From Candidatus Binatia bacterium (GTDB lineage Bacteria; Desulfobacterota; Binatia; HRBIN30): DNA of 64,000 nucleotides. A program made the translations under genes and the position numbers. Below the pieces are notes generated by a model. It did no database searches and was not told the DNA's origin. It saw nothing but the letters and a program-made list of their open reading frames with translations. The stretch lies in contig JBBRSP010000031.1 in NCBI GenBank assembly GCA_038245295.1, positions 10,014 through 74,013 on the forward strand, written 5' to 3'. Positions within the stretch are counted from its first letter, which is position 1. Every line of letters begins with the position of its first letter. Shown piece after piece: positions 1 to 62,279 of the stretch.

Positions 1-263
1 CCTCGATAGATAGCTCTGGCATAACCATTCGCGAACGTGCTAAGGCGAGCCCCAACGCGAGAGGGCGGCTACCCACTTGCAGGGCATTTAGACGTAGTTT
101 GGTTTCGGCGGTTTCGGTCTTGGCACGGCCAAGGCTGCCGGAAAATGTGCATCCGAGCGGTGCGGGCGCAGGTTTGTCTCCCATGACAAAGCGGCGGCGC
201 ATCCTTCGGCTGTAGTAGATGCCGTGTATCGGTGGGGCCCTTCGTAGAAAACGAGGGACCGAC

Positions 264-8150
<7,887 letters not shown>

Positions 8151-16504: not shown

Positions 16505-16615
16505 TTCCCCGCCCGGGTCCACTTGGCAGGAAGGTGCGCGGGACGGCGTCGGAGGGGGCGCCGTCTCCTCGCTTGGCAAACCAATCGAGCAAATGAGGGC
16601 GAAAGGAATGGAGTA

Positions 16616-18895
16616 GTGAGATTACGGCGGGCAGTACGAATTGGTGGAGGGGTGGTTCTTGGGTTGGCGGTGCTCTTGCCCACGACGGGGCTGCTCCAGA
16701 CCCCAGCGCTCGCCGCTCCCACCCCGCCCGTCGAGTTTATCGGCCGCCAGGCCTGTGCCCCGTGCCACAAGCCGGAGATCGAGGGTTATGCCGGATCGCA
16801 TCACGATCTGGCCATGCAGGTTGCCGACGCCAAGACTGTGCTGGGCAACTTCGACGGCGCCACCTTCGAGTACAACGGCCTCACGTCGACATTCACGAAG
16901 AAAAAAGACGGCTACTACGTTCGCACCGATGGCGCCGACGGCAAGCTGCACGACTTCCGCATCGCCTACACCTTCGGCATCGCACCACTGCAGCAATACC
17001 TGATTCAGTTCCCCGATGGCCGGCTTCAGGCGCTCAGCATCTGCTGGGACACGCGGCCTAAGGATGCCGGCGGGCAACACTGGTTTCATCTCTACCCGAA
17101 CGACAAGGTCGACTACCGTGACGTTCTGCACTGGACCGGTCCGGCGCAGAACTGGAACTTCATGTGCGCCGAGTGCCACTCGACCAACGTGCGCAAGAAC
17201 TTCGATGCGACCAAGAACCGGTTCTCCACGAGTTGGTCGGAGCTCGACGTATCGTGTGAGGCCTGCCACGGGCCAGGTGCCAAACACATTGCTTGGGCGA
17301 AGCAGGCGAAGACGGATGGCAGTGCCGCAGACCCGATGCATGGTCTGCCGGTCAAGCTCAGTGTTGGCAGCGGCGTGTGGCAGTTCGACGCCGAGCACCC
17401 GATCGCGCAGCTGTCCGATGCGCGCGATACGCGAGCCCAGATCGAGACCTGCGGTCGCTGTCACGCCCGGCGCTCGCAGATCAGCGAAGCCTACCGCTAC
17501 GGCGAGCCGTTGGCTCAAACCCACGTCGTTTCCTTGCTGGATGAGGGCCTGTATCACGCCGACGGTCAGATTCTCGAAGAGGTGTACGAGTACGGTTCGT
17601 TCCTGCAGAGCCGCATGTATGCGCGCGGGGTGACCTGCGGCGATTGTCACGATCCACACAGCGGCAAGTTGAAGGCCGAGGGCAATACGTTGTGCGCGAC
17701 CTGCCACCGCGCCGAGACGTACGACGTCGAGGCGCACCATCACCACCCGGCCGGCAGCACGGGCACAAGCTGCATCGGGTGCCATATGTTGCAGCGCAAC
17801 TACATGGTGGTGCATACGCGTCACGATCACAGCTTCCGCGTGCCGCGCCCCGATCTCGCCGCGTCTCTCGGTACGCCCGATACGTGCACGTCCTGCCATC
17901 AAGGGCGCACGCCTGGCTGGGCCGCCGAGGCAATCGTGAAGTGGTACGGACCGACACGTGAACGTAGGCCATTCTATGCGCCGGCGTTGGCGGCGGGCCG
18001 ACGGCAACAAGCCGGTGCCGAGACGTTGCTGACGGAGGTCGTCACGGATAATGCCATGCCAGCGCTCGTGCGCGCGACAGCCGTCGGACTTCTAGGCCGC
18101 GGCGGCGACGGTGTTGCCGAGCGGATCCTTGGGAATCTCGGCGATGCGGATCCACTTGTGCGGCGTGCCGCGGTGGAGGCTTCGGCCAGTTGGTCACCGC
18201 AGCGACGCGTCCAGGCGGTGACGCCATTGTTGGCCGATCCGATTCGCACAGTACGCCTTGCCGCGGTCGACGCCCTGGCTGATGTGGCGGCCGCGGCACC
18301 GTTCAAGGACGAACAGCGCAAAGCGTTCAGCGCCGCGGTTGCCGAGTATCGCGACGTGCAGGCGTTGAATGCCGATCGCGCCGATTCATGGCTCAACCTC
18401 GGGGCACTCGATGTGCGCCTTGGTAATCCGACGGCTGCCGAAGCGGCCTATCAGCGGGCCATCCGGGTGCAGCCGGATTTCATGCCGTCGTATGTGAACC
18501 TCGCCGATCTGTACCGTGGCCTTCAACGCGATGCGGATGGCGAACATACGCTGCGCCAGGCGCTGGCGCGGCAAGCGAATTCGGCCGATGTTCACCACTC
18601 GCTCGGCTTGCTGCTCATCCGCCAGAAGCACAATGCCGAAGCCCTCGCGGAACTGGGCCGAGCGGCTGAGCTGGCGCCCGATGTGTCGAACTACGCGTAT
18701 GTCTACGCGGTGGCGCTCGACGGCATGGGCCAACCGGCGCAAGCATTGCGCGTCCTCGAGCAAACCCATCAGCGCTTTACCGGCGATCGCAACGTGCTGT
18801 CGGCCCTGATGCAATTTGCCGCCAAGGCGGGTGACAACGAGGGCGCGGCGCGTTGGGGGCAAGAGTTGCAGAATCTCGACGGCGGTCAGCCGTAG
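16616..18895 (+). CDS. Octaheme c-type cytochrome with HEAT-like and TPR repeats
   Basis: Eight CxxCH (CAPCH, CAECH, CEACH, CGRCH, CGDCH, CATCH, CIGCH, CTSCH); DPLVRRAAV/DPIRTVRLAAV; TPR-like helices; signal peptide. GTG start is inferred. Confidence 0.88.
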   Translation: MRLRRAVRIGGGVVLGLAVLLPTTGLLQTPALAAPTPPVEFIGRQACAPCHKPEIEGYAGSHHDLAMQVADAKTVLGNFDGATFEYNGLTSTFTKKKDGYYVRTDGADGKLHDFRIAYTFGIAPLQQYLIQFPDGRLQALSICWDTRPKDAGGQHWFHLYPNDKVDYRDVLHWTGPAQNWNFMCAECHSTNVRKNFDATKNRFSTSWSELDVSCEACHGPGAKHIAWAKQAKTDGSAADPMHGLPVKLSVGSGVWQFDAEHPIAQLSDARDTRAQIETCGRCHARRSQISEAYRYGEPLAQTHVVSLLDEGLYHADGQILEEVYEYGSFLQSRMYARGVTCGDCHDPHSGKLKAEGNTLCATCHRAETYDVEAHHHHPAGSTGTSCIGCHMLQRNYMVVHTRHDHSFRVPRPDLAASLGTPDTCTSCHQGRTPGWAAEAIVKWYGPTRERRPFYAPALAAGRRQQAGAETLLTEVVTDNAMPALVRATAVGLLGRGGDGVAERILGNLGDADPLVRRAAVEASASWSPQRRVQAVTPLLADPIRTVRLAAVDALADVAAAAPFKDEQRKAFSAAVAEYRDVQALNADRADSWLNLGALDVRLGNPTAAEAAYQRAIRVQPDFMPSYVNLADLYRGLQRDADGEHTLRQALARQANSADVHHSLGLLLIRQKHNAEALAELGRAAELAPDVSNYAYVYAVALDGMGQPAQALRVLEQTHQRFTGDRNVLSALMQFAAKAGDNEGAARWGQELQNLDGGQP

Positions 18896-19137: not shown

Positions 19138-22100
19138 TTACGGACAACCATCGATCGCGGCGATCACGGCACGGATGATCTCCTCCGTTGTGATCGAGCC
19201 ATCACCGTTCACATCACCCGCCAGACAAGCGCTGATAGGCTTCTCTTCGAGGGCGATGTTTACCATCAGGATAACCTCGTCGACGGTTACTTGACCGTTC
19301 ATGCCACAGTCGCCGGGGCAGACCGGAAGTACCGTCGGCGTCGCGGTCGGGGTGGCTTCCGGCGTCGGTGTTTCCGTGGCGGTGGCGGTGGCGGTGGCCG
19401 GTGGTGTCGGAGTTTCCGTTGGCGTCACGGTGGCCGTCGGGCTTGCCTGTGTCGGTGTTTCGGTGGCGGTCTGAGTCGGGGCCTCGGTTGGCGTTTCCGT
19501 CGGTAGCTCGGTTGCTGTTGCGACGGGGACTGGTGTTTCGGTTGGCTCCGCGGTCACCGTATGCGTCGCCTCGGCGACCGGCGTCACGGTCGGCGTTAGT
19601 TCCACCACCGGTGTTTCAGTTGGGACCGCCGTCTCCGTCGGCACCGGCGTTGCAGTGCTGGTTGGCTCCGCCGTTGGCGTCTCGGTTGGCGCGGCGGTTT
19701 CGGTCGCGGTCGGTGCGGTCGTTGGTGTGTCGGTCGCCGTCCCGGTCGCCGTGTTCTGCGGCGTCGGAGTGGCGGTCGTCGTGGCGGTTGCGACGGCGGT
19801 TGGTGTCTCCGTAACGGTGGCCGTGATTGTCGGTTCAGGCGTGGCCGTATCCGTTGCGGTTGCCGTCGGTAACGGTAGCGGCGTGTCGGTTGGTGTCAGT
19901 GTCGGCTGTGGCGTCGACGTGTCGGTCGGAATCGGCGTCGCCGTCGGGGTGTCCGTCGGGGTTTCGGTCGGCGTATCCGTCGGCGTAGCGGTATGCGTCG
20001 GGGTAGCCGTTCGTGTCGGTGTCTGCGTCGGTGTGGCGGTTTCTGTCGGTGTCGGCGACGGGCGCTGGACCGCTCCATTGGCGACCAGACGCAACGTCCT
20101 CACCGAATCTCCCGTGTTCGCGAGGTTGCCAAAGGTGGCGACTAGTTCCAGGCCGGAGAGATCCGGCGGGTTCTGAGCCAGCTCTGAACAGGCGATCAAG
20201 GGTAGTCCCATCTCGGCGAATGGTCCGATGTTGGTGCCGTTCTGGAAGTTGGCGTTGATCACTTCGGCATTGGCGCCGCCGGTGGTGAAGTCGACGGTTT
20301 GCGGCACGCCGCGCTGCGTCGGTGTGTCATTGATCGTGCAGAAATTAGCCGCACAGGCCGACGCGCTGTGGCCGGTTGCGATGGCCGCGAGCAGGCGTGC
20401 GGAGCCTTGCGGGCCGGTGCCGCTTGTCGTCACGGCTGACGGCACCGGTGTCCGCAGGGTGCAATCCGGCGGATTGGCGCAGCCTCCTGCATCAACGAGC
20501 GTATCGACGTCGATGTTGGTCAGGCCATCGGTGCCGCAGCCGAAGGTCCCGGCAGCGGAGAGTGTCGGGCCGAAGACATCAGCGCATGGCTTGCTGTCCG
20601 GGCAACTGGCGCTGCCGGCGAACTCGTCGTTGCATTGTTGTGAGGGCGAGCCGTCCTGGTTGTAGAGGGTTCCACCACAGGTCTTGAGATTGACGGCGCG
20701 CACGCAGCTGCAGCCATCGGCGAGATCGACCGGGTTGAACTGGGCCTGGAAGGCGCGAATAACAAACGGGCGGCTGCCGTCGGCGCTAGGTTTGCCGACG
20801 ACCAGAACTTGCGAGCCATGCAGGGCCGCGGCGCTGGCGCCACCCTGCTCGTGCGACGCCAGATGGCTGTCCGGCACGAGGTTCATCGTTACTTCCGTTT
20901 CGAGGGTGCAGTTGGCGGCGCAACCATCGCCACCGACGGGTTTGCAATGGATGCAGCGGCTGCCGGGGCATTCGCTGTTGTCGGCACACTCGTAACCGGC
21001 TTTTGGCCCGGCTTCGCAGGCGCCGTTGCCGATGCAGAGTGAGTCGGTGGTGCAGAGATCGCCGGCGTTGAGGCCGCCGACGCAGATGCCGCCGTCATCA
21101 CATTCTTCGCCTGGGTCGAGCACAGCGTTGCGGCAGAGCAGGGGGCCGAGTGGTGTCGGCGTATTGGTTGCCGTCGCCGTGTTGGTCTGCGTGCGCGTCG
21201 GCGTGCCGGTGCGCGTGTCGGTAGCTGTGGCCGTCGCGGTCGCCGTGGCGGCGGAGGTTTCAGTCGGTGTCGAACTCTTCGTCGGTGTCGCCGAGGTGGT
21301 GAACGTCGCAGTTTGTGTGGCGCTGGGGCTCGGTGAAGCGGTCTGCGTCACCGACGCCGTGGCGCTCGGCGTGCTGGTATGTGTCGCCGTCTCGGTCGCC
21401 GTCGGAGTGGCTGTGTCGGTTGGTGTCGTCGACGCAGTCGCGGTCCGTGTCTCGGTTGAAGTGTGAGTCGGCGTCGCCGTATCCACCGGCGTCGCCGTCG
21501 GGGTGTTTGTCGGCGTCGTCGTGGCTGTGCTGGTGGCGGTATCTGTCGCAATCGGTGTGGCGCTCGGTGTGGCCGTTTCCGTCGCCGTCGGTGTCGGCGT
21601 GTGTGTTGGCGTTTCCGTATGTGTCGGTGTTTGCGTCGGCGTGTCGGTGACCGTGGCCGTCAGTGTTGGCGTATTGGTTGGCGTGTACGTCAAAGTCGGG
21701 CTCGACGTCGGGGTGTCGGTTACCGTCGCTGTCGGCGTTGCCGTAGTTGTCGAGCTAGGCGTGAAGGTATTCGTCGCGGTATTGGTCGCGGTGCGACTTG
21801 GCGTCTGCGTTGCGGTCGACGACGGGGTCGCGGTCCCGGTTTGAGTCGGTGTGCCGATGCTCGGCGGGAAGTCGATACGTCCAATGCGGTTGGTGAAGGA
21901 TTCAGTGATCCAGAAGTTCCCATCCGTCCCCGTGGCTAATCCGTAGAATCGCGGATTCGGAAATCCGGCCTTCGGTGCCACGGCGATGGTGAACTCTGAG
22001 ATGGTGTTGGGCGCGTTGACGAGGATGCGGCTCAAATGGTTGCCGCTGCCCTGCGTGTACCACAGGTTGCCGTCCGGCCCGCTGATGATGATGGTCGGGT

Positions 22101-22893
22101 TCGTCGAGAACGTTGGCATGGTGAATTCGGTGATCGTCCCGCTTGGCGTGATGCGACCGACCTTGCCGCTCTCGAGGAACCACAGATTGCCGTCCGTTCC
22201 TTTGGTGATGCCGGTCGGCGCGCTGCTCAAGGTTGGGATCGTAAACTCGGTGATAACCCCGGCGGTGGTCATACGCCCGATGCGGTTTCCCATCTGTTCA
22301 GTGAACCACAGGTTGCCGTCCGGGCCGGTGACGATCGAGTTCGGTTTGCTGTTGGCCGTCGGCAGGGAGACCTCGGTGATCGTATTGGGCGCGTTGACAA
22401 GGATACGCCCGATCTTGTTGCCGCCAGCCTCGGTGAACCACATGTTCCCCTCGGGACCGGCGGTGATGCCGTTGGGGAAGCTGGAACCGGTGGGAATCGA
22501 AAATTCCGTGACTGTTCCAGATGTTGTGATGCGGCCGATCTTGCCGACCGATTGCTCGGTGAACCACAGGTTGCCGTCCGGCCCAGCGGCGATGCCGGTT
22601 GGCGTGCTACCGGCGCTCATCACCGGGTAGTTGGTGATGCTACCGGCGGTGGTGATGACACCAATGGCGTTGCCGGTGCTCTGCGCGTACCATAGATTGC
22701 CGTCCGGACCGCTGACGATTTCGCGCGGTTCGAAGGCCCCCGCGAGGGGGTACTCGGTCGCGGGTACCTGCGCGTGAGCCCGTTGAACCCCGATCAGCGC
22801 AACGAACGAGAGCGCGATTGTGAAGAGTAGACACTGCCGATTCAGGCGAATCGGACGATGAAGACACGGATATCGGTGAGGGGAGACGCCCAT
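19138..22893 (-). CDS. Exported modular protein: 7-blade Vgb-like beta-propeller, Thr/Pro linker, Cys-rich DUF4215-like plus unknown domain, acidic Thr/Pro linker, C-terminal dockerin-like domain
   Basis: Seven G(P/T)(D/E)GNxW repeats; signal peptide ending [32 protein letters not shown]-terminus [16 protein letters not shown]...[14 protein letters not shown]. Start placed at ATG 22893 to avoid overlap with the MFS gene. Confidence 0.85.
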
Positions 22894-58162: not shown

Positions 58163-58268
58163 CTTCGGCCCCGTCGCGTTGGATACGCACCTGCGCACCG
58201 CTGCGGCTTCATAGGCGGTGTTGTGCCCGTATTGGCCGGTTGGGAAGTCTCTGTTCTGGGAGGGAATT

Positions 58269-61200
58269 ATGTTGGCGAAGAACCTCGTCCGAGCACGTGT
58301 GGCGTTTTCTCTACTGTCGACGATCGCGTTTGCTGCCGGTTGTTCGGAGGAAGCCGGGCCACCTCCGGCGGTCCAACCGAGCGCTACGGCCACATTGACG
58401 TCGGTGGCGCAGCCGCAAACACCAACGAGGACTTCGACGGTTTCGAATCCTGAAACCCCGACTCCAACGCTCACGAGCACGCTGCCAAGCAGCACCGCGA
58501 CGCCAACCCCGACGACGGCGACCGCGCAGTGCGCTGATCCGCGCCCGGCGCCGAGTGGGCCGGCGATCTATATTGAAGACGTCAACCTTACTGCTGGCGC
58601 CACGACGGCGGCCATCACCGCCAAGCTGGTATCGGGTGTCGATGTCGCCGGAACACAGAATGACATCACCCTGTCGGCCGCGCTGCGCATCAAGGCCAAG
58701 GCGAACGGCAAACCGGATTGCGCCGTCAATGCGGCGATCGACAAGACCGGCACATCGTTCGCGTTCCGCCCCAATGGATGCACGGGTGCTGCCTGCACCG
58801 GTGTACGAGCCCTGGTACTGTCGACTGAAAACGTCGATGCCATTCCTTCCGGAGCGGCACTCTACAGTTGCAACGTCGATGTAGTGGCCGGTGGTGAGCT
58901 TCCGGTGACCGGAGTGATCCTCAGCACGCCGGCTGGCCAACAGGTAAGCGGCGCTACAGGCCGTGGCGGCATCGTCTGCCTGCCGGGAGCCCAACCCTCG
59001 GCGACACCGACCCCGACGCAGGCCCCGGCGACGGCGACCACAACGCCGACCACGAGCAGCGGCCAGGTCTGCGCCAATCCGCGCCCGGCGCCGGCTGGTC
59101 CCGCCATCTATCTTGAAGACCTCAACCTGCCGAAGGACTCGACGGCCGGCACGATCACCGCAAAGCTGGTTGCCGCGACGGGTGTCGCCGGCACACAGAG
59201 CGATATCAACTTCCCGGCCGGGGTAAGCATCAAACGCAAAGCCAACGGCAAGCCTGACTGCACCGTCAATCCAGACATCGACAAGACTGGCACCTCCTTT
59301 GCCTTCCGCCCGAACGCCTGCACCGCCGAAACGTGCACCGGCGTGCGCGCCCTGGTTCTGTCGACCGAGAACGTCGATCCGATCGTTAGCGGGTCTACCT
59401 TGTTCACCTGCAACATCAGTGTGACGGGTCCCGGCGGCGAACTGGTCGTGTCTGGCGTAATCCTGAGTACCCCTGGTGGCCAGCAAGTCAGCGGCTCCTC
59501 CGGGCGCGGCGGCATCGTCTGCGTCGAGGGCGCACAGTTGCCGACAGCGACGCCGACTCTGACCAGCACGCCGACTGCTCCGGCGTTCACCGCGACACCG
59601 ACGAATGTCGAAGCAACTCTCACCCCGACGCCCGCCGTTGCGACGGCGACACCAACGCTGGTTGTCTCGACCTGCCCCAGCCCGCGTCCCGCACCAGCCG
59701 GACCGGCGATCTACCTCAACGACATCAGCGTCGCCCAGGGCGCAACGAGTGCGGTCATTACCGTTAAGCTTGCGTCGGGCGGTTCCATGGTTGCCGGCAC
59801 GCAAAACGATCTTGCCCTGCCCAGCGGCATCCGCATCAAGGCGAAGGTCAACGGCAAACCGGATTGCGCCGTCAACGTGGCCATCGACAAGACGAGCACC
59901 TCGTTCAGTTTCCGACCAACTGCTTGTCAGGGTGACGCGTGCGACGGCGTGCGCGCCATTGTGTTGTCGACCGAGAACCTCGACGTGATTCCGGACGGCT
60001 CGGCCCTGTATTCGTGTAACGTCACTGTGACTCACGGCGGCTCGATCGCCGTCATAGGGGTGATCCTTAGCGATCCTGACGGTAACCGGGTTGCCGGGGC
60101 GGCCGGACGCGACGGCAACGTTTGCGTCGAGGGAGAGGTGCCGCCGACAGTGACACCGACGTCCACCCCCACCTCGACGAACACTCCTGTCCCGACAGCA
60201 ACCGACACGCCGACGGTGGTGATGAACACCCCGACCGCGACACCGACGGAGTTCGTCTCGACCTGTCCTGCACCGCGTCCGGCCCCGACCGGGCCGGCCG
60301 CCTACGTCGCTGATACGATCCTGCCGATGGGCTCGACCGCCGGCGCGATCACCGTCAAACTGGCCACTGGCGGTAAACTGATTGCCGGCGCGCAAAACGA
60401 CCTCGCCTTGCCGAGCGGCATGGCGATCCTCGCCAAGGGCAATGGTCGTCCCGACTGCAGCGTCAACCCAGCGATCGACAAAGCCGGAACGTCGTTCAGC
60501 TTCCTGCCGATCGCCTGCGAAGGCAGCGCCTGTCGCGGCGTCCGTGCCATCGTTATTTCGACCGACAACCTCACGGCGATCGCCGATGGCGCCGTTCTCT
60601 ACACCTGCAGCGCCACTGTCACCTTCGGAGGAATCGTCGGCGTGAGCGAAGTGTTCTTTGGTGATCCGGATGGCAACCGCGTGCCGGATGGCAGCGGGCG
60701 CGACGGCAGCATTTGCATCGAAGGGCAGCTGCCGACACCGACCGTTACGGCAACGCCGACACCTACCGACACGGCGGCGCCGGTACCATCGTCTACCGAT
60801 ACGCCAGTTGCGGGTGAGACGGCAACGCCGACCCCGACGGCGGCCTTGGAAGCGACGGGCACAGCGACGCCGACCAACGCACCGGAAGTGACCGCCACGG
60901 CAACGGCGAGTCCATCCCCGACAATCGCCATCGCTGGATGCGAACAGGTTCGTCAGGGCCCTGCTGGGCCAGCCGTCTGGATCGTCGATTCGTCGGCCCT
61001 GCCGGGGACGGAGACCTCGATTACGGTCCGCCTCGCTACCCTTGGCCAAACAATCGTCGGCACGCAGAATGAAATCGCCTTCCCGGCGGCGGCGACGATC
61101 GTTGCGTTGGGCAACGGCCGCCCCGATTGCACCGTGCCCAGCGAGCTGAACAAGGGCGCCAGTTACTTTGGATTCACCCCAACGGGTTGTTCGGGAGCGG

Positions 61201-62174
61201 AATGCACGGGCATCAGCGCGATTGTTGTCGCCACCGACAACATCGATCCTATTCCCGACAACAGCATCCTCTACAACTGCCGGGTTGCGGTTGCGGCGAA
61301 CGCGACGGGCACACTCGATATCACGGTCGGCGAGGTCATTCTGAGCGACCCCAACGGTAACCGTATTGCCGAGCCGGGATCGCAAGACGGCCGGATCTGC
61401 ACAGGGCCGGCCCCTGTGGTTTCCGAAGCGACCTTGGCCGGCAAGAATGAAGTGCCGGCCGTCGATAGCGATGCCACCGGCCACGCGTCCGTTGTGCCGA
61501 CGGCCGACGGAATCAGCGTGACGCTGACGACTTCGTTCACCGCAGCGTTGGCGGCTCACATCCACTGTGGACCGGTCGGCGTGAATGGCGGCGTCGTCTT
61601 CGGCTTGTATAGCCTTGCTGACGGACCCATCCCGGCGACCTTGACGAAACAACTGACCTCGGCCGACCTCATGCCGGTCGGATCAATTTCGACGATGGCC
61701 GAAGCCATCACGGCCATTCAAAGTGGCGACTGCTACGTGAACGTTCACACCCAGGCTCACCAGGGCGGCGAGATCCGCGGCCAACTGAGCATGTCGGAGT
61801 TCCACGCGACGCTGACCGGTGACGGCGAGTCGAGCCCGGTGGCGACCGATGCGACAGGCACGGCAGCCGTCGGCTTCACGGCCAGCAAGATCGTCGTCAC
61901 GTTGAACACGACCGGTCTCGTCCAGCCTCTCGCGGCGCACATTCACCTGGGTCCGATCGGCGTCAACGGCCCGGTGATCTTCGGCTTGTACAGCCTGGCA
62001 GACGGCGCGTTGCCTGCGACATTGACGAAAACCCTGACAGCGGCGGACCTCATGCCCACCGCCGGAGCCAGTACGTTCAGCGAGGCTACCGCAGCGATTG
62101 CGGCGGGCGGAACCTATGTGAACGTCCATACTCAGGCGAACCAAGGCGGCGAGATTCGCGGCCAGGTACAGTGA
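58269..62174 (+). CDS. Lipoprotein with 5 Cys-rich cohesin-like repeats, Thr/Pro linkers and 2 C-terminal CHRD domains
   Basis: GGAGGG RBS; lipobox AAGC; five ~150-aa repeats (VAGTQND..NGKPDC.VN..IDK..F.F.P..C....C.GVRA.V.ST.N...I..G..LY.C); CHRD motifs AAHIH and YVNVHT...GGEIRGQ twice. Confidence 0.85.
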   Translation: MLAKNLVRARVAFSLLSTIAFAAGCSEEAGPPPAVQPSATATLTSVAQPQTPTRTSTVSNPETPTPTLTSTLPSSTATPTPTTATAQCADPRPAPSGPAIYIEDVNLTAGATTAAITAKLVSGVDVAGTQNDITLSAALRIKAKANGKPDCAVNAAIDKTGTSFAFRPNGCTGAACTGVRALVLSTENVDAIPSGAALYSCNVDVVAGGELPVTGVILSTPAGQQVSGATGRGGIVCLPGAQPSATPTPTQAPATATTTPTTSSGQVCANPRPAPAGPAIYLEDLNLPKDSTAGTITAKLVAATGVAGTQSDINFPAGVSIKRKANGKPDCTVNPDIDKTGTSFAFRPNACTAETCTGVRALVLSTENVDPIVSGSTLFTCNISVTGPGGELVVSGVILSTPGGQQVSGSSGRGGIVCVEGAQLPTATPTLTSTPTAPAFTATPTNVEATLTPTPAVATATPTLVVSTCPSPRPAPAGPAIYLNDISVAQGATSAVITVKLASGGSMVAGTQNDLALPSGIRIKAKVNGKPDCAVNVAIDKTSTSFSFRPTACQGDACDGVRAIVLSTENLDVIPDGSALYSCNVTVTHGGSIAVIGVILSDPDGNRVAGAAGRDGNVCVEGEVPPTVTPTSTPTSTNTPVPTATDTPTVVMNTPTATPTEFVSTCPAPRPAPTGPAAYVADTILPMGSTAGAITVKLATGGKLIAGAQNDLALPSGMAILAKGNGRPDCSVNPAIDKAGTSFSFLPIACEGSACRGVRAIVISTDNLTAIADGAVLYTCSATVTFGGIVGVSEVFFGDPDGNRVPDGSGRDGSICIEGQLPTPTVTATPTPTDTAAPVPSSTDTPVAGETATPTPTAALEATGTATPTNAPEVTATATASPSPTIAIAGCEQVRQGPAGPAVWIVDSSALPGTETSITVRLATLGQTIVGTQNEIAFPAAATIVALGNGRPDCTVPSELNKGASYFGFTPTGCSGAECTGISAIVVATDNIDPIPDNSILYNCRVAVAANATGTLDITVGEVILSDPNGNRIAEPGSQDGRICTGPAPVVSEATLAGKNEVPAVDSDATGHASVVPTADGISVTLTTSFTAALAAHIHCGPVGVNGGVVFGLYSLADGPIPATLTKQLTSADLMPVGSISTMAEAITAIQSGDCYVNVHTQAHQGGEIRGQLSMSEFHATLTGDGESSPVATDATGTAAVGFTASKIVVTLNTTGLVQPLAAHIHLGPIGVNGPVIFGLYSLADGALPATLTKTLTAADLMPTAGASTFSEATAAIAAGGTYVNVHTQANQGGEIRGQVQ

Positions 62175-62176
62175 GA

Positions 62177-62279
62177 CCATCTGGCCATTTGGCCATTTGA
62201 TCATCTGCTCATTTGGCCATTTGGCCATTTTCGGAATGCCCAAATGGCAAGATGGCAAGATGGCAAGATGGCCAAATGG
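62177..62279. repeat. Inverted octamer tandem repeats between convergent genes
   Basis: Seven CCATTTGG-like units (62177-62232) facing five CCAAATGG/CAAGATGG units (62240-62279). Confidence 0.85.

Follow-up and report, generated by a model that had tools for sequence, protein, structure and literature searches.

A predicted lipoprotein scaffoldin with five cohesin-fold repeats in a Candidatus Binatia genome rich in dockerin-fold tags

The gene at positions 58269-62174 of a 64,000-nucleotide stretch of Candidatus Binatia bacterium DNA (hereafter the window; assembly GCA_038245295.1, contig JBBRSP010000031.1, positions 10,014 to 74,013) raises the question of what a scaffoldin-like protein would hold in this organism, and where. 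The reading favored here, with a probability of roughly two in three, is that its product acts as a lipid-anchored scaffold. Its lipobox would anchor it in the membrane, with lipidation and a surface location as predicted features, and its five cohesin-fold repeats would bind the dockerin-fold tags of about 120 other proteins, which would be kept at the cell envelope without anchors of their own. This cargo would consist of proteases, beta-propellers, redox proteins including a ten-haem MtrC-type cytochrome, and many unknown domains, and not of cellulases. The gene would be one accessory scaffold, in which the genome's own cohesins were probably placed into a lipobox-linker-CHRD protein; adhesion of the CHRD tip to a polymer is a guess.

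The architecture of the gene was delineated from the sequence, Pfam matches and a partial match in a second sample. All features lie on the + strand:

58258-58263: Shine-Dalgarno-like GGGAGG upstream of the ATG at 58269 (sequence)
58269-62174: whole gene, predicted lipoprotein scaffoldin of 1301 residues, five cohesin-fold repeats and two CHRD domains
58269-58343: predicted lipoprotein signal peptide with lipobox Cys25 (pattern match; lipidation predicted)
58344-58523: Thr/Pro-rich tether from lipobox to repeat 1 (sequence)
58524-58991: cohesin-fold repeat 1, 68% identical to a repeat of a MYXO-CTERM-type scaffold on contig C12 of the genome (G000)
59064-59534: cohesin-fold repeat 2, with 72% identity to the C12 repeat that repeat 1 matches
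59667-60137: cohesin-fold repeat 3, the modeled repeat
60258-60728: cohesin-fold repeat 4, deviating at some predicted binding-face positions
60933-61412: cohesin-fold repeat 5, the most divergent (36-45% identity to the other repeats) and without the conserved face Arg
61413-61787: CHRD domain 1 (Pfam)
61794-62171: CHRD domain 2 (best Pfam stretch, residues 1178-1300)

Cys25 (position 58341) closes the stretch ...STIAFAAG-C and satisfies a regular expression for lipoboxes based on the PROSITE rule. The five repeats, of about 156 residues and six cysteines apiece, share 36-69% mutual identity and are separated by Thr/Pro linkers. The CHRD pair matches Pfam PF07452 in two stretches (E 6.6e-44; 150 bits against a cut-off of 24.1). 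An original prediction, made from the letters of the window, had described this same succession of lipobox, six-cysteine repeats and two CHRD domains, and each element was found in its place. Contigs from a second sample of the same study (run X2) show zero differing letters over 58242-58804 (start, lipobox and part of repeat 1) and over 60267-61527 (repeat 4 to the start of CHRD domain 1), as two separate stretches, with no X2 piece spanning the whole gene. Weak NCBIfam matches of the repeats to a VOC family lie far under the cut-off.

Pfam PF00963 (cohesin) gave no match to the whole scaffoldin or to repeat 3 searched directly, so the cohesin identification rests on homologues and structure. 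PF00963 is present in 5 of 31 homologues of the scaffoldin, and the Pfam Cohesin model matches 27 of 75 aligned family members at E up to 1 (best 1.4e-8). A profile of the repeat family matched a Ruminococcus scaffoldin cohesin among PDB sequences (E 4.3e-9); this deeper profile was required, as one built from the five repeats alone gave 0 matches there. An AlphaFold2 model of repeat 3 reached a predicted local distance difference test score (pLDDT) of 96.7. Using this model, all 37 entries displayed by Foldseek were cohesins, the best being Archaeoglobus cohesin 2xdh (E 1.9e-7). VIA structure comparison against 48,161 chains placed cohesins at ranks 1-20 (Z scores 15.3-10.9), with the first non-cohesin fold at Z 9.1. 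The top VIA match, 6kgc_A (Z 15.3), aligns over 131 residues with a root-mean-square deviation (rmsd) of 2.4, so that the predicted model matches the nine-stranded jelly-roll beta-sandwich of solved cohesins. The repeats are thus cohesin-fold by prediction, in agreement with the resemblance originally read from their strand pattern.

Cysteine co-variation across cohesin domains suggests three disulfides per repeat, making the disulfide stabilization originally proposed probable. Positions 67 and 117 occur together in 373 of 373 domains, and 87 and 92 in 358 of 366; for positions 3 and 153, both are present in 55 domains, both absent in 125 and one alone in 12. Conservation of the two sheets was compared across 376 cohesin domains. 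Positions predicted to point outward on strands 3, 5, 6 and 8 (14 positions, 2.36 bits) are better conserved than their counterparts on the opposite sheet (16 positions, 3.02 bits; permutation p 0.016, with faces assigned from a rule and general cohesin topology). The sheet of strands 8-3-6-5 is the one that binds dockerin in known cohesins. Gln46, Asp48 and Arg96 of the face are each conserved at 76-79% in the same 376 domains, and the predicted binding face is kept in repeats 1-3.

The window also encodes a candidate binding partner, on the - strand:

19138-22893: protein predicted to be secreted, with a Vgb-lyase-type beta-propeller, Thr/Pro stalks and a dockerin-fold tag at its C-terminus; it belongs to the genome's 123 tagged open reading frames (ORFs); start codon uncertain
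19141-19320: dockerin-fold tag with two calcium-loop-helix halves and four cysteines (sequence, model and structure comparison)

The tag forms the last 60 residues of a protein of about 1250 residues with a long Thr/Pro stalk. Its propeller is of the Vgb-lyase type (Pfam E 4.6e-86); a Vgb resistance enzyme was considered and rejected at 234 bits against a cut-off of 600, which leaves a propeller and no resistance call. As originally stated, no Pfam glycoside hydrolase family matches either the scaffoldin or this protein. The tag model (pLDDT 92.4) has helices at 18-28 and 50-62. VIA ranks dockerins 1-13 (Z 6.7-4.4; next fold Z 3.2), the best match having rmsd 2.9 over 59 residues, with modest absolute scores. 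Foldseek likewise ranks dockerins first, with template modeling (TM) scores of about 0.6 to dockerins versus about 0.3 to EF-hand proteins. A dockerin profile searched against PDB sequences ranked EF-hand proteins top, whereas structure comparison favored dockerins. Dockerin_1 matches 22 of 34 tag-family members at E up to 1. The tags are dockerin-fold by prediction, as had been supposed for the one in the window. They are two-fold symmetric and uniform across the genome: the loop D-x-N/D-x-D-x-x-V-T-I/V-D-E recurs in both halves across 113 tags, in 93 of the 113, each half has I/V at loop position 10 and D/N/E at position 11, and both helices conserve V17, A20 and L21. We infer a single specificity class. 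A multihaem cytochrome c with HEAT and TPR repeats, encoded at 16523-18895 (+), adjoins this dockerin-tagged gene of the window.

A profile census of the genome found the 123 tagged ORFs at about one per 64 kb. The cohesin domains number 29, spread over 19 ORFs, and 9 of these ORFs have a dockerin as well. At this density of tags, the probability of at least one tagged ORF in a 64-kb window is about 0.66. Since one tagged gene per 64 kb is expected, the pair in the window is arbitrary. The original prediction had put the two genes about 35 kb apart, and the gap is indeed 35.4 kb; the special pairing it hypothesized between them was rejected, the tag being expected by chance. Its scaffold idea held as far as the modules go and overlooked the wider setting: the gene is a variable member of a system found throughout the order, and the better-conserved scaffold of that system is encoded on contig C12.

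Both modules, which the original prediction proposed to follow across related genomes, do occur together. All 41 related genomes carry them, at 1-37 cohesin and 11 to at least 150 dockerin matches per genome (the best 150 dockerin candidates being scored in each). So do all 26 genomes of the same order, probably HRBIN30, in a sample of the class; 5 of these are new, giving 46 of 46 searched in the order. Elsewhere in the class they are rare: among 175 genomes of other orders, cohesin was found in 5, dockerin in 4 and both in 2, each time as one or two copies (the class-sample searches scored 18 and 31 candidates in every genome). A sample of the phylum gave 3 matches out of 251. Of the 29 best-match loci, 13, belonging to three families, have a dockerin gene immediately upstream of the cohesin gene. 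A few tags score low (G000 C2:48166-49107, C41:39655-40872 and C19:18034-18825); in the C2 and C41 cases a single-half dockerin with the first and last Cys only is fused to Lcl_C or YHYH domains.

Cargo was classified by a Pfam scan of 132 ORFs (the 123 tagged plus 9 cohesin-only). A single glycoside hydrolase, of family GH10, is found among the 123, and other glycan-related tagged proteins comprise one heparinase II/III-like protein, one with carbohydrate-binding module CBM96 and three beta-helix proteins. The remainder includes proteases (M10, S8, trypsin and M23), numerous propellers (FG-GAP, BNR, Kelch, NHL and Vgb) and redox proteins (di-haem peroxidases, MbnP and multihaem cytochromes), one cargo being an OmcA/MtrC decahaem cytochrome over the cut-off. 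Of the scanned ORFs, 77 have no Pfam family beyond EF-hand, cohesin or dockerin. GH9 and CBM3 were not found in the 96.6% complete genome by searches whose controls gave a signal; GH48 gave no match either, though its positive controls gave no signal. Three GH5 genes are present and none is tagged. The scaffoldin is not part of a cellulosome, and the non-cellulolytic purpose originally suggested agrees with this cargo. A crude signal-peptide rule fitted 84 of 113 tagged ORFs versus 45% of background frames, and was not used because it is too loose.

Anchor and tag were compared across MtrC orthologues. Among 19 close MtrC orthologues, 6 start with a signal peptide and dockerin, none of these having a signal-peptide lipobox, 13 start with a lipobox, and 0 have both; this count omits 11 of 30 loci (5 where another cytochrome ORF was picked, 5 with a different N-terminal module and 1 with neither). 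This mutual exclusion suggests that the dockerin tag stands in for the lipid anchor on MtrC. Four lipobox forms occur in a family without a match to cohesin or dockerin. The MtrC orthologues at L196, L199, L200, L203 and L207 (family f7, from a different order within the class) lack both lipobox and dockerin; they begin with one of two other Cys-rich modules followed by a Thr-rich linker, possibly a different surface-tag system.

The C12 scaffold consists of a signal peptide, three cohesins, a linker and a MYXO-CTERM-like tail, and sits behind two dockerin genes. The TIGR03901 cut-off is passed by a single-cohesin protein on contig C11 and not by the C12 scaffold. GspD and a myxosortase-family protease are both encoded over their cut-offs, the protease only just. 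In Myxococcus, MYXO-CTERM proteins reach the surface via the type II system (PMC11980579). Just upstream of the C12 scaffold, the gene L089:2020-3009 (G000 C12:35317-36306) appears by eye to encode a divergent, enlarged cohesin fused to a dockerin. The cohesin-like part of its product gave no Pfam or profile match, and orthologues occur in L016, L018, L020, L029, L031 and L035.

In quick trees, as used for both the repeats and MtrC, repeats 1-4 join repeats 2-3 of the C12 scaffold in a ten-domain group that has support (Shimodaira-Hasegawa-like approximate likelihood ratio test 95). Among 173 homologues, eight further lipobox proteins carry 2-4 cohesins (P0035, P0042, P0065, P0071, P0108, P0110, P0112 and P0161; five pattern matches judged spurious by eye and the single-cohesin P0160 are excluded), and a simple pattern detects a MYXO-like tail on 62 multi-cohesin proteins. 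The lipoprotein scaffold is therefore a recurring minority form. The cohesin-CHRD fusion was seen only in the scaffoldin at 58269-62174 within the searched homologue sets: none was found at the loci of 10 other CHRD-positive genomes (of 52; loci extend 1.5 kb from the match) or among 119 CHRD-region homologues (from the best 120 of 616). Other proteins combine lipobox, linker and CHRD but have no cohesin (L142, P0174 and P0176), and the scaffoldin gene is probably a recent shuffle. There are also six dockerin-propeller-CHRD proteins. A family of about 1550 residues (L139-L141; P0178-P0180, P0182, P0197 and P0223) combines a propeller, a cytochrome c-like region and four to five CHRD domains, and six of its database members have an N-terminal dockerin. 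Human chordin CHRDs bind sulfated glycosaminoglycans and have a fold resembling Cu,Zn superoxide dismutase (PMC13382577).

Several observations weigh against the scaffold reading. The sheet and the inward or outward calls derive from hydropathy alternation and general cohesin topology rather than from coordinates, and repeats 4 and 5 deviate at predicted face positions. All dockerin Z scores of the tag are below 8, a range graded weak by the tool, its Foldseek E values are 0.05 or worse, and by sequence alone it scores higher to EF-hands than to dockerins. Only about 10 cohesins sit on predicted anchors versus 123 tagged ORFs, and no second cohesin-CHRD fusion of this architecture occurs among the 173 cohesin homologues. 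Co-occurrence of the modules is confined to one clade, and so is close to one evolutionary observation rather than 46 independent ones. The MtrC anchor swap may likewise be a single event, as the quick tree needs two changes and well-supported branches force only one. The gene is solitary, its neighbors being housekeeping genes (pterin dehydratase, enoyl-CoA hydratase, pyrophosphatase, carboxypeptidase and thioredoxin), and the lipoprotein could face the periplasm. A complex prediction of repeat 3, the window tag and two calcium ions, in which the controls did not fold, scored 0.30 and 0.27 against a mark of 0.32 and speaks neither for nor against binding.

Other explanations were weighed as well. 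The repeats could be cohesin-fold stalk or adhesin domains that project the two CHRDs, with the tags serving for calcium binding, as an export or retention signal, or for the divergent cohesin-like protein of the conserved operon. Secreted proteins that are otherwise unrelated do combine one cohesin-like domain with CHRD (4 of 120 matches listed; P0195), lipobox-linker-CHRD proteins also occur cohesin-free, and pilin and adhesin folds come next in VIA at Z 8-9. However, cohesins beat adhesin folds by up to 6 Z units, the outer face of one sheet is more conserved, the eight lipobox and many MYXO-tail tandem-cohesin proteins have no other recognized domain to project, and cohesin genes are operon-linked with dockerin genes; this explanation is unlikely. 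Alternatively, the pairing could be real and the product a periplasmic or released matrix, in which adaptors bearing both cohesin and dockerin polymerize into a mesh that the lipoprotein merely nucleates or tethers. The 9 of 19 cohesin ORFs that also carry a dockerin, most in the common recognition pattern, would permit chains, and anchored sockets are few. Di-haem peroxidases and MbnP, both present in the cargo, are periplasmic protein types. MtrC/OmcA cytochromes, on the other hand, are outer-surface proteins in the organisms studied, and long Thr/Pro stalks suit surface display. MYXO-CTERM proteins are also located at the outer surface where studied (PMC11980579), and a mesh of this kind appears distinctly improbable. 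An ordinary cellulosome-like complex degrading polysaccharides with unrecognized enzymes could point to the few glycan-related tagged proteins and to the 77 ORFs lacking a further family; against the absence of GH9 and CBM3 and the untagged GH5 genes, it is very improbable, the GH48 result being uninformative.

Comparison with known systems places the scaffold reading in context. The anchoring and polyvalent scaffoldins of cellulosomes (Acetivibrio, Ruminococcus and Clostridium; type I-III pairs) share with Binatia tandem cohesin-fold modules, Pro/Thr linkers, a cell anchor (a predicted one in Binatia), the duplicated calcium-loop-helix dockerin and adaptors bearing both modules, and the G-x-Q-x-N/D strand of the R. 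flavefaciens ScaB cohesin aligns with the Binatia repeats. Unlike cellulosomes, the Binatia proteins belong to a diderm host with secretins and carry a lipobox or MYXO-CTERM-type anchor rather than an S-layer homology (SLH) or sortase motif. Their modules are Cys-rich, Glu occupies dockerin loop position 12, CBM3 is absent, just 1 of the 123 tagged ORFs is a glycoside hydrolase, and binding is predicted. Archaeoglobus and C. perfringens cohesins (PDB 2xdh and 2vo8) are further non-cellulose cohesins, the former being the best Foldseek match of repeat 3.

Anaerobic methanotrophic (ANME) archaea offer another parallel: like Binatia, they encode scaffoldin-like proteins with up to five cohesins each and many dockerin-tagged non-cellulolytic cargoes, with function proposed from genomes alone (PMC9012536). 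They differ in being archaeal, in scaffolds that carry dockerin and in cargo that is mainly ATP-binding cassette (ABC) substrate-binding and S-layer proteins; the ANME section of that paper describes no lipobox-cohesin-CHRD protein. The 'planctosome' of Nemodlikiaceae, a proposed non-cellulosomal cohesin-dockerin assembly (PMC6461901), and a Limihaloglobus scaffoldin-like protein (PMC11557425) resemble Binatia in their diderm host, proposed status and peptidase and redox cargo. In Limihaloglobus, a protein has one or two cohesins and the dockerin fusions number 13, whereas Binatia reaches seven cohesins per protein alongside the dockerin numbers given above. The mucinolysome and amylosome (PMC12997984) extend the pair beyond cellulose, as Binatia does, but are glycan-degrading and from Firmicutes; that 2026 paper states that no cellulosome system has been described outside Firmicutes. 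A Chlorobium cohesin-dockerin pair is a further precedent (10.64898/2026.03.19.712371). A cellulosome survey of 305,693 genomes used RefSeq, excluded metagenome-based genomes and required a dockerin-glycoside hydrolase gene (PMC11557425). A term search of the main text of the Binatota genome paper (PMC8262859) returned no 'dockerin', 'cohesin' or 'cellulosome', the part of a 2025 review considered (PMC12484212) has nothing on such lineages, and a literature search with subscription papers outside its scope found no non-cellulosomal scaffoldin for Binatia.

Multi-cohesin scaffoldins with more than 100 dockerin clients are established in Firmicutes that digest plant fiber, starch or mucin, and non-cellulosomal versions have been published as genome-based proposals for ANME archaea and Planctomycetes. 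A wider and more tentative proposal, held at somewhat short of even odds, is that one Binatia order uses cohesin-dockerin pairing as a general surface-addressing system. A single dockerin class would replace lipid anchors on 10-150 secreted proteins per genome, including the ten-haem cytochrome, and would dock them on scaffolds of the lipoprotein and MYXO-CTERM kinds and on self-extending adaptors. The outcome would be a protein coat that a Gram-negative cell can reconfigure. If true, a diderm order with cellulosome-scale tag numbers on non-cellulolytic cargo would indicate that cohesin-dockerin pairing is usable as a general code for envelope display. On MtrC, the alternation of lipobox and dockerin directly tests whether tag replaces anchor and, if so, an extracellular cytochrome would be carried on a protein scaffold. 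Because the modules are small and expressible in E. coli, the question can be addressed without culturing the host. Designer enzyme assemblies would also benefit from a disulfide-stabilized pair with a different specificity.

Around the scaffoldin gene, no sigma-70 promoter match was found, and terminator-like sites occur at chance level. At the other end of the window, 219-8150 (+) encodes a 2643-residue protein, probably a large adhesin, that contains GEVED and SdrD_B domains and is outside the cohesin and dockerin matches. Between the converging stops downstream of the scaffoldin gene, 62177-62279 holds intergenic 8-bp units, CCATTTGG-like and then ATGGCAAG-like, roughly inverted; similar DNA occurs at about 17-19 places in the genome, and the element resembles a repetitive extragenic palindromic (REP)-type repeat.

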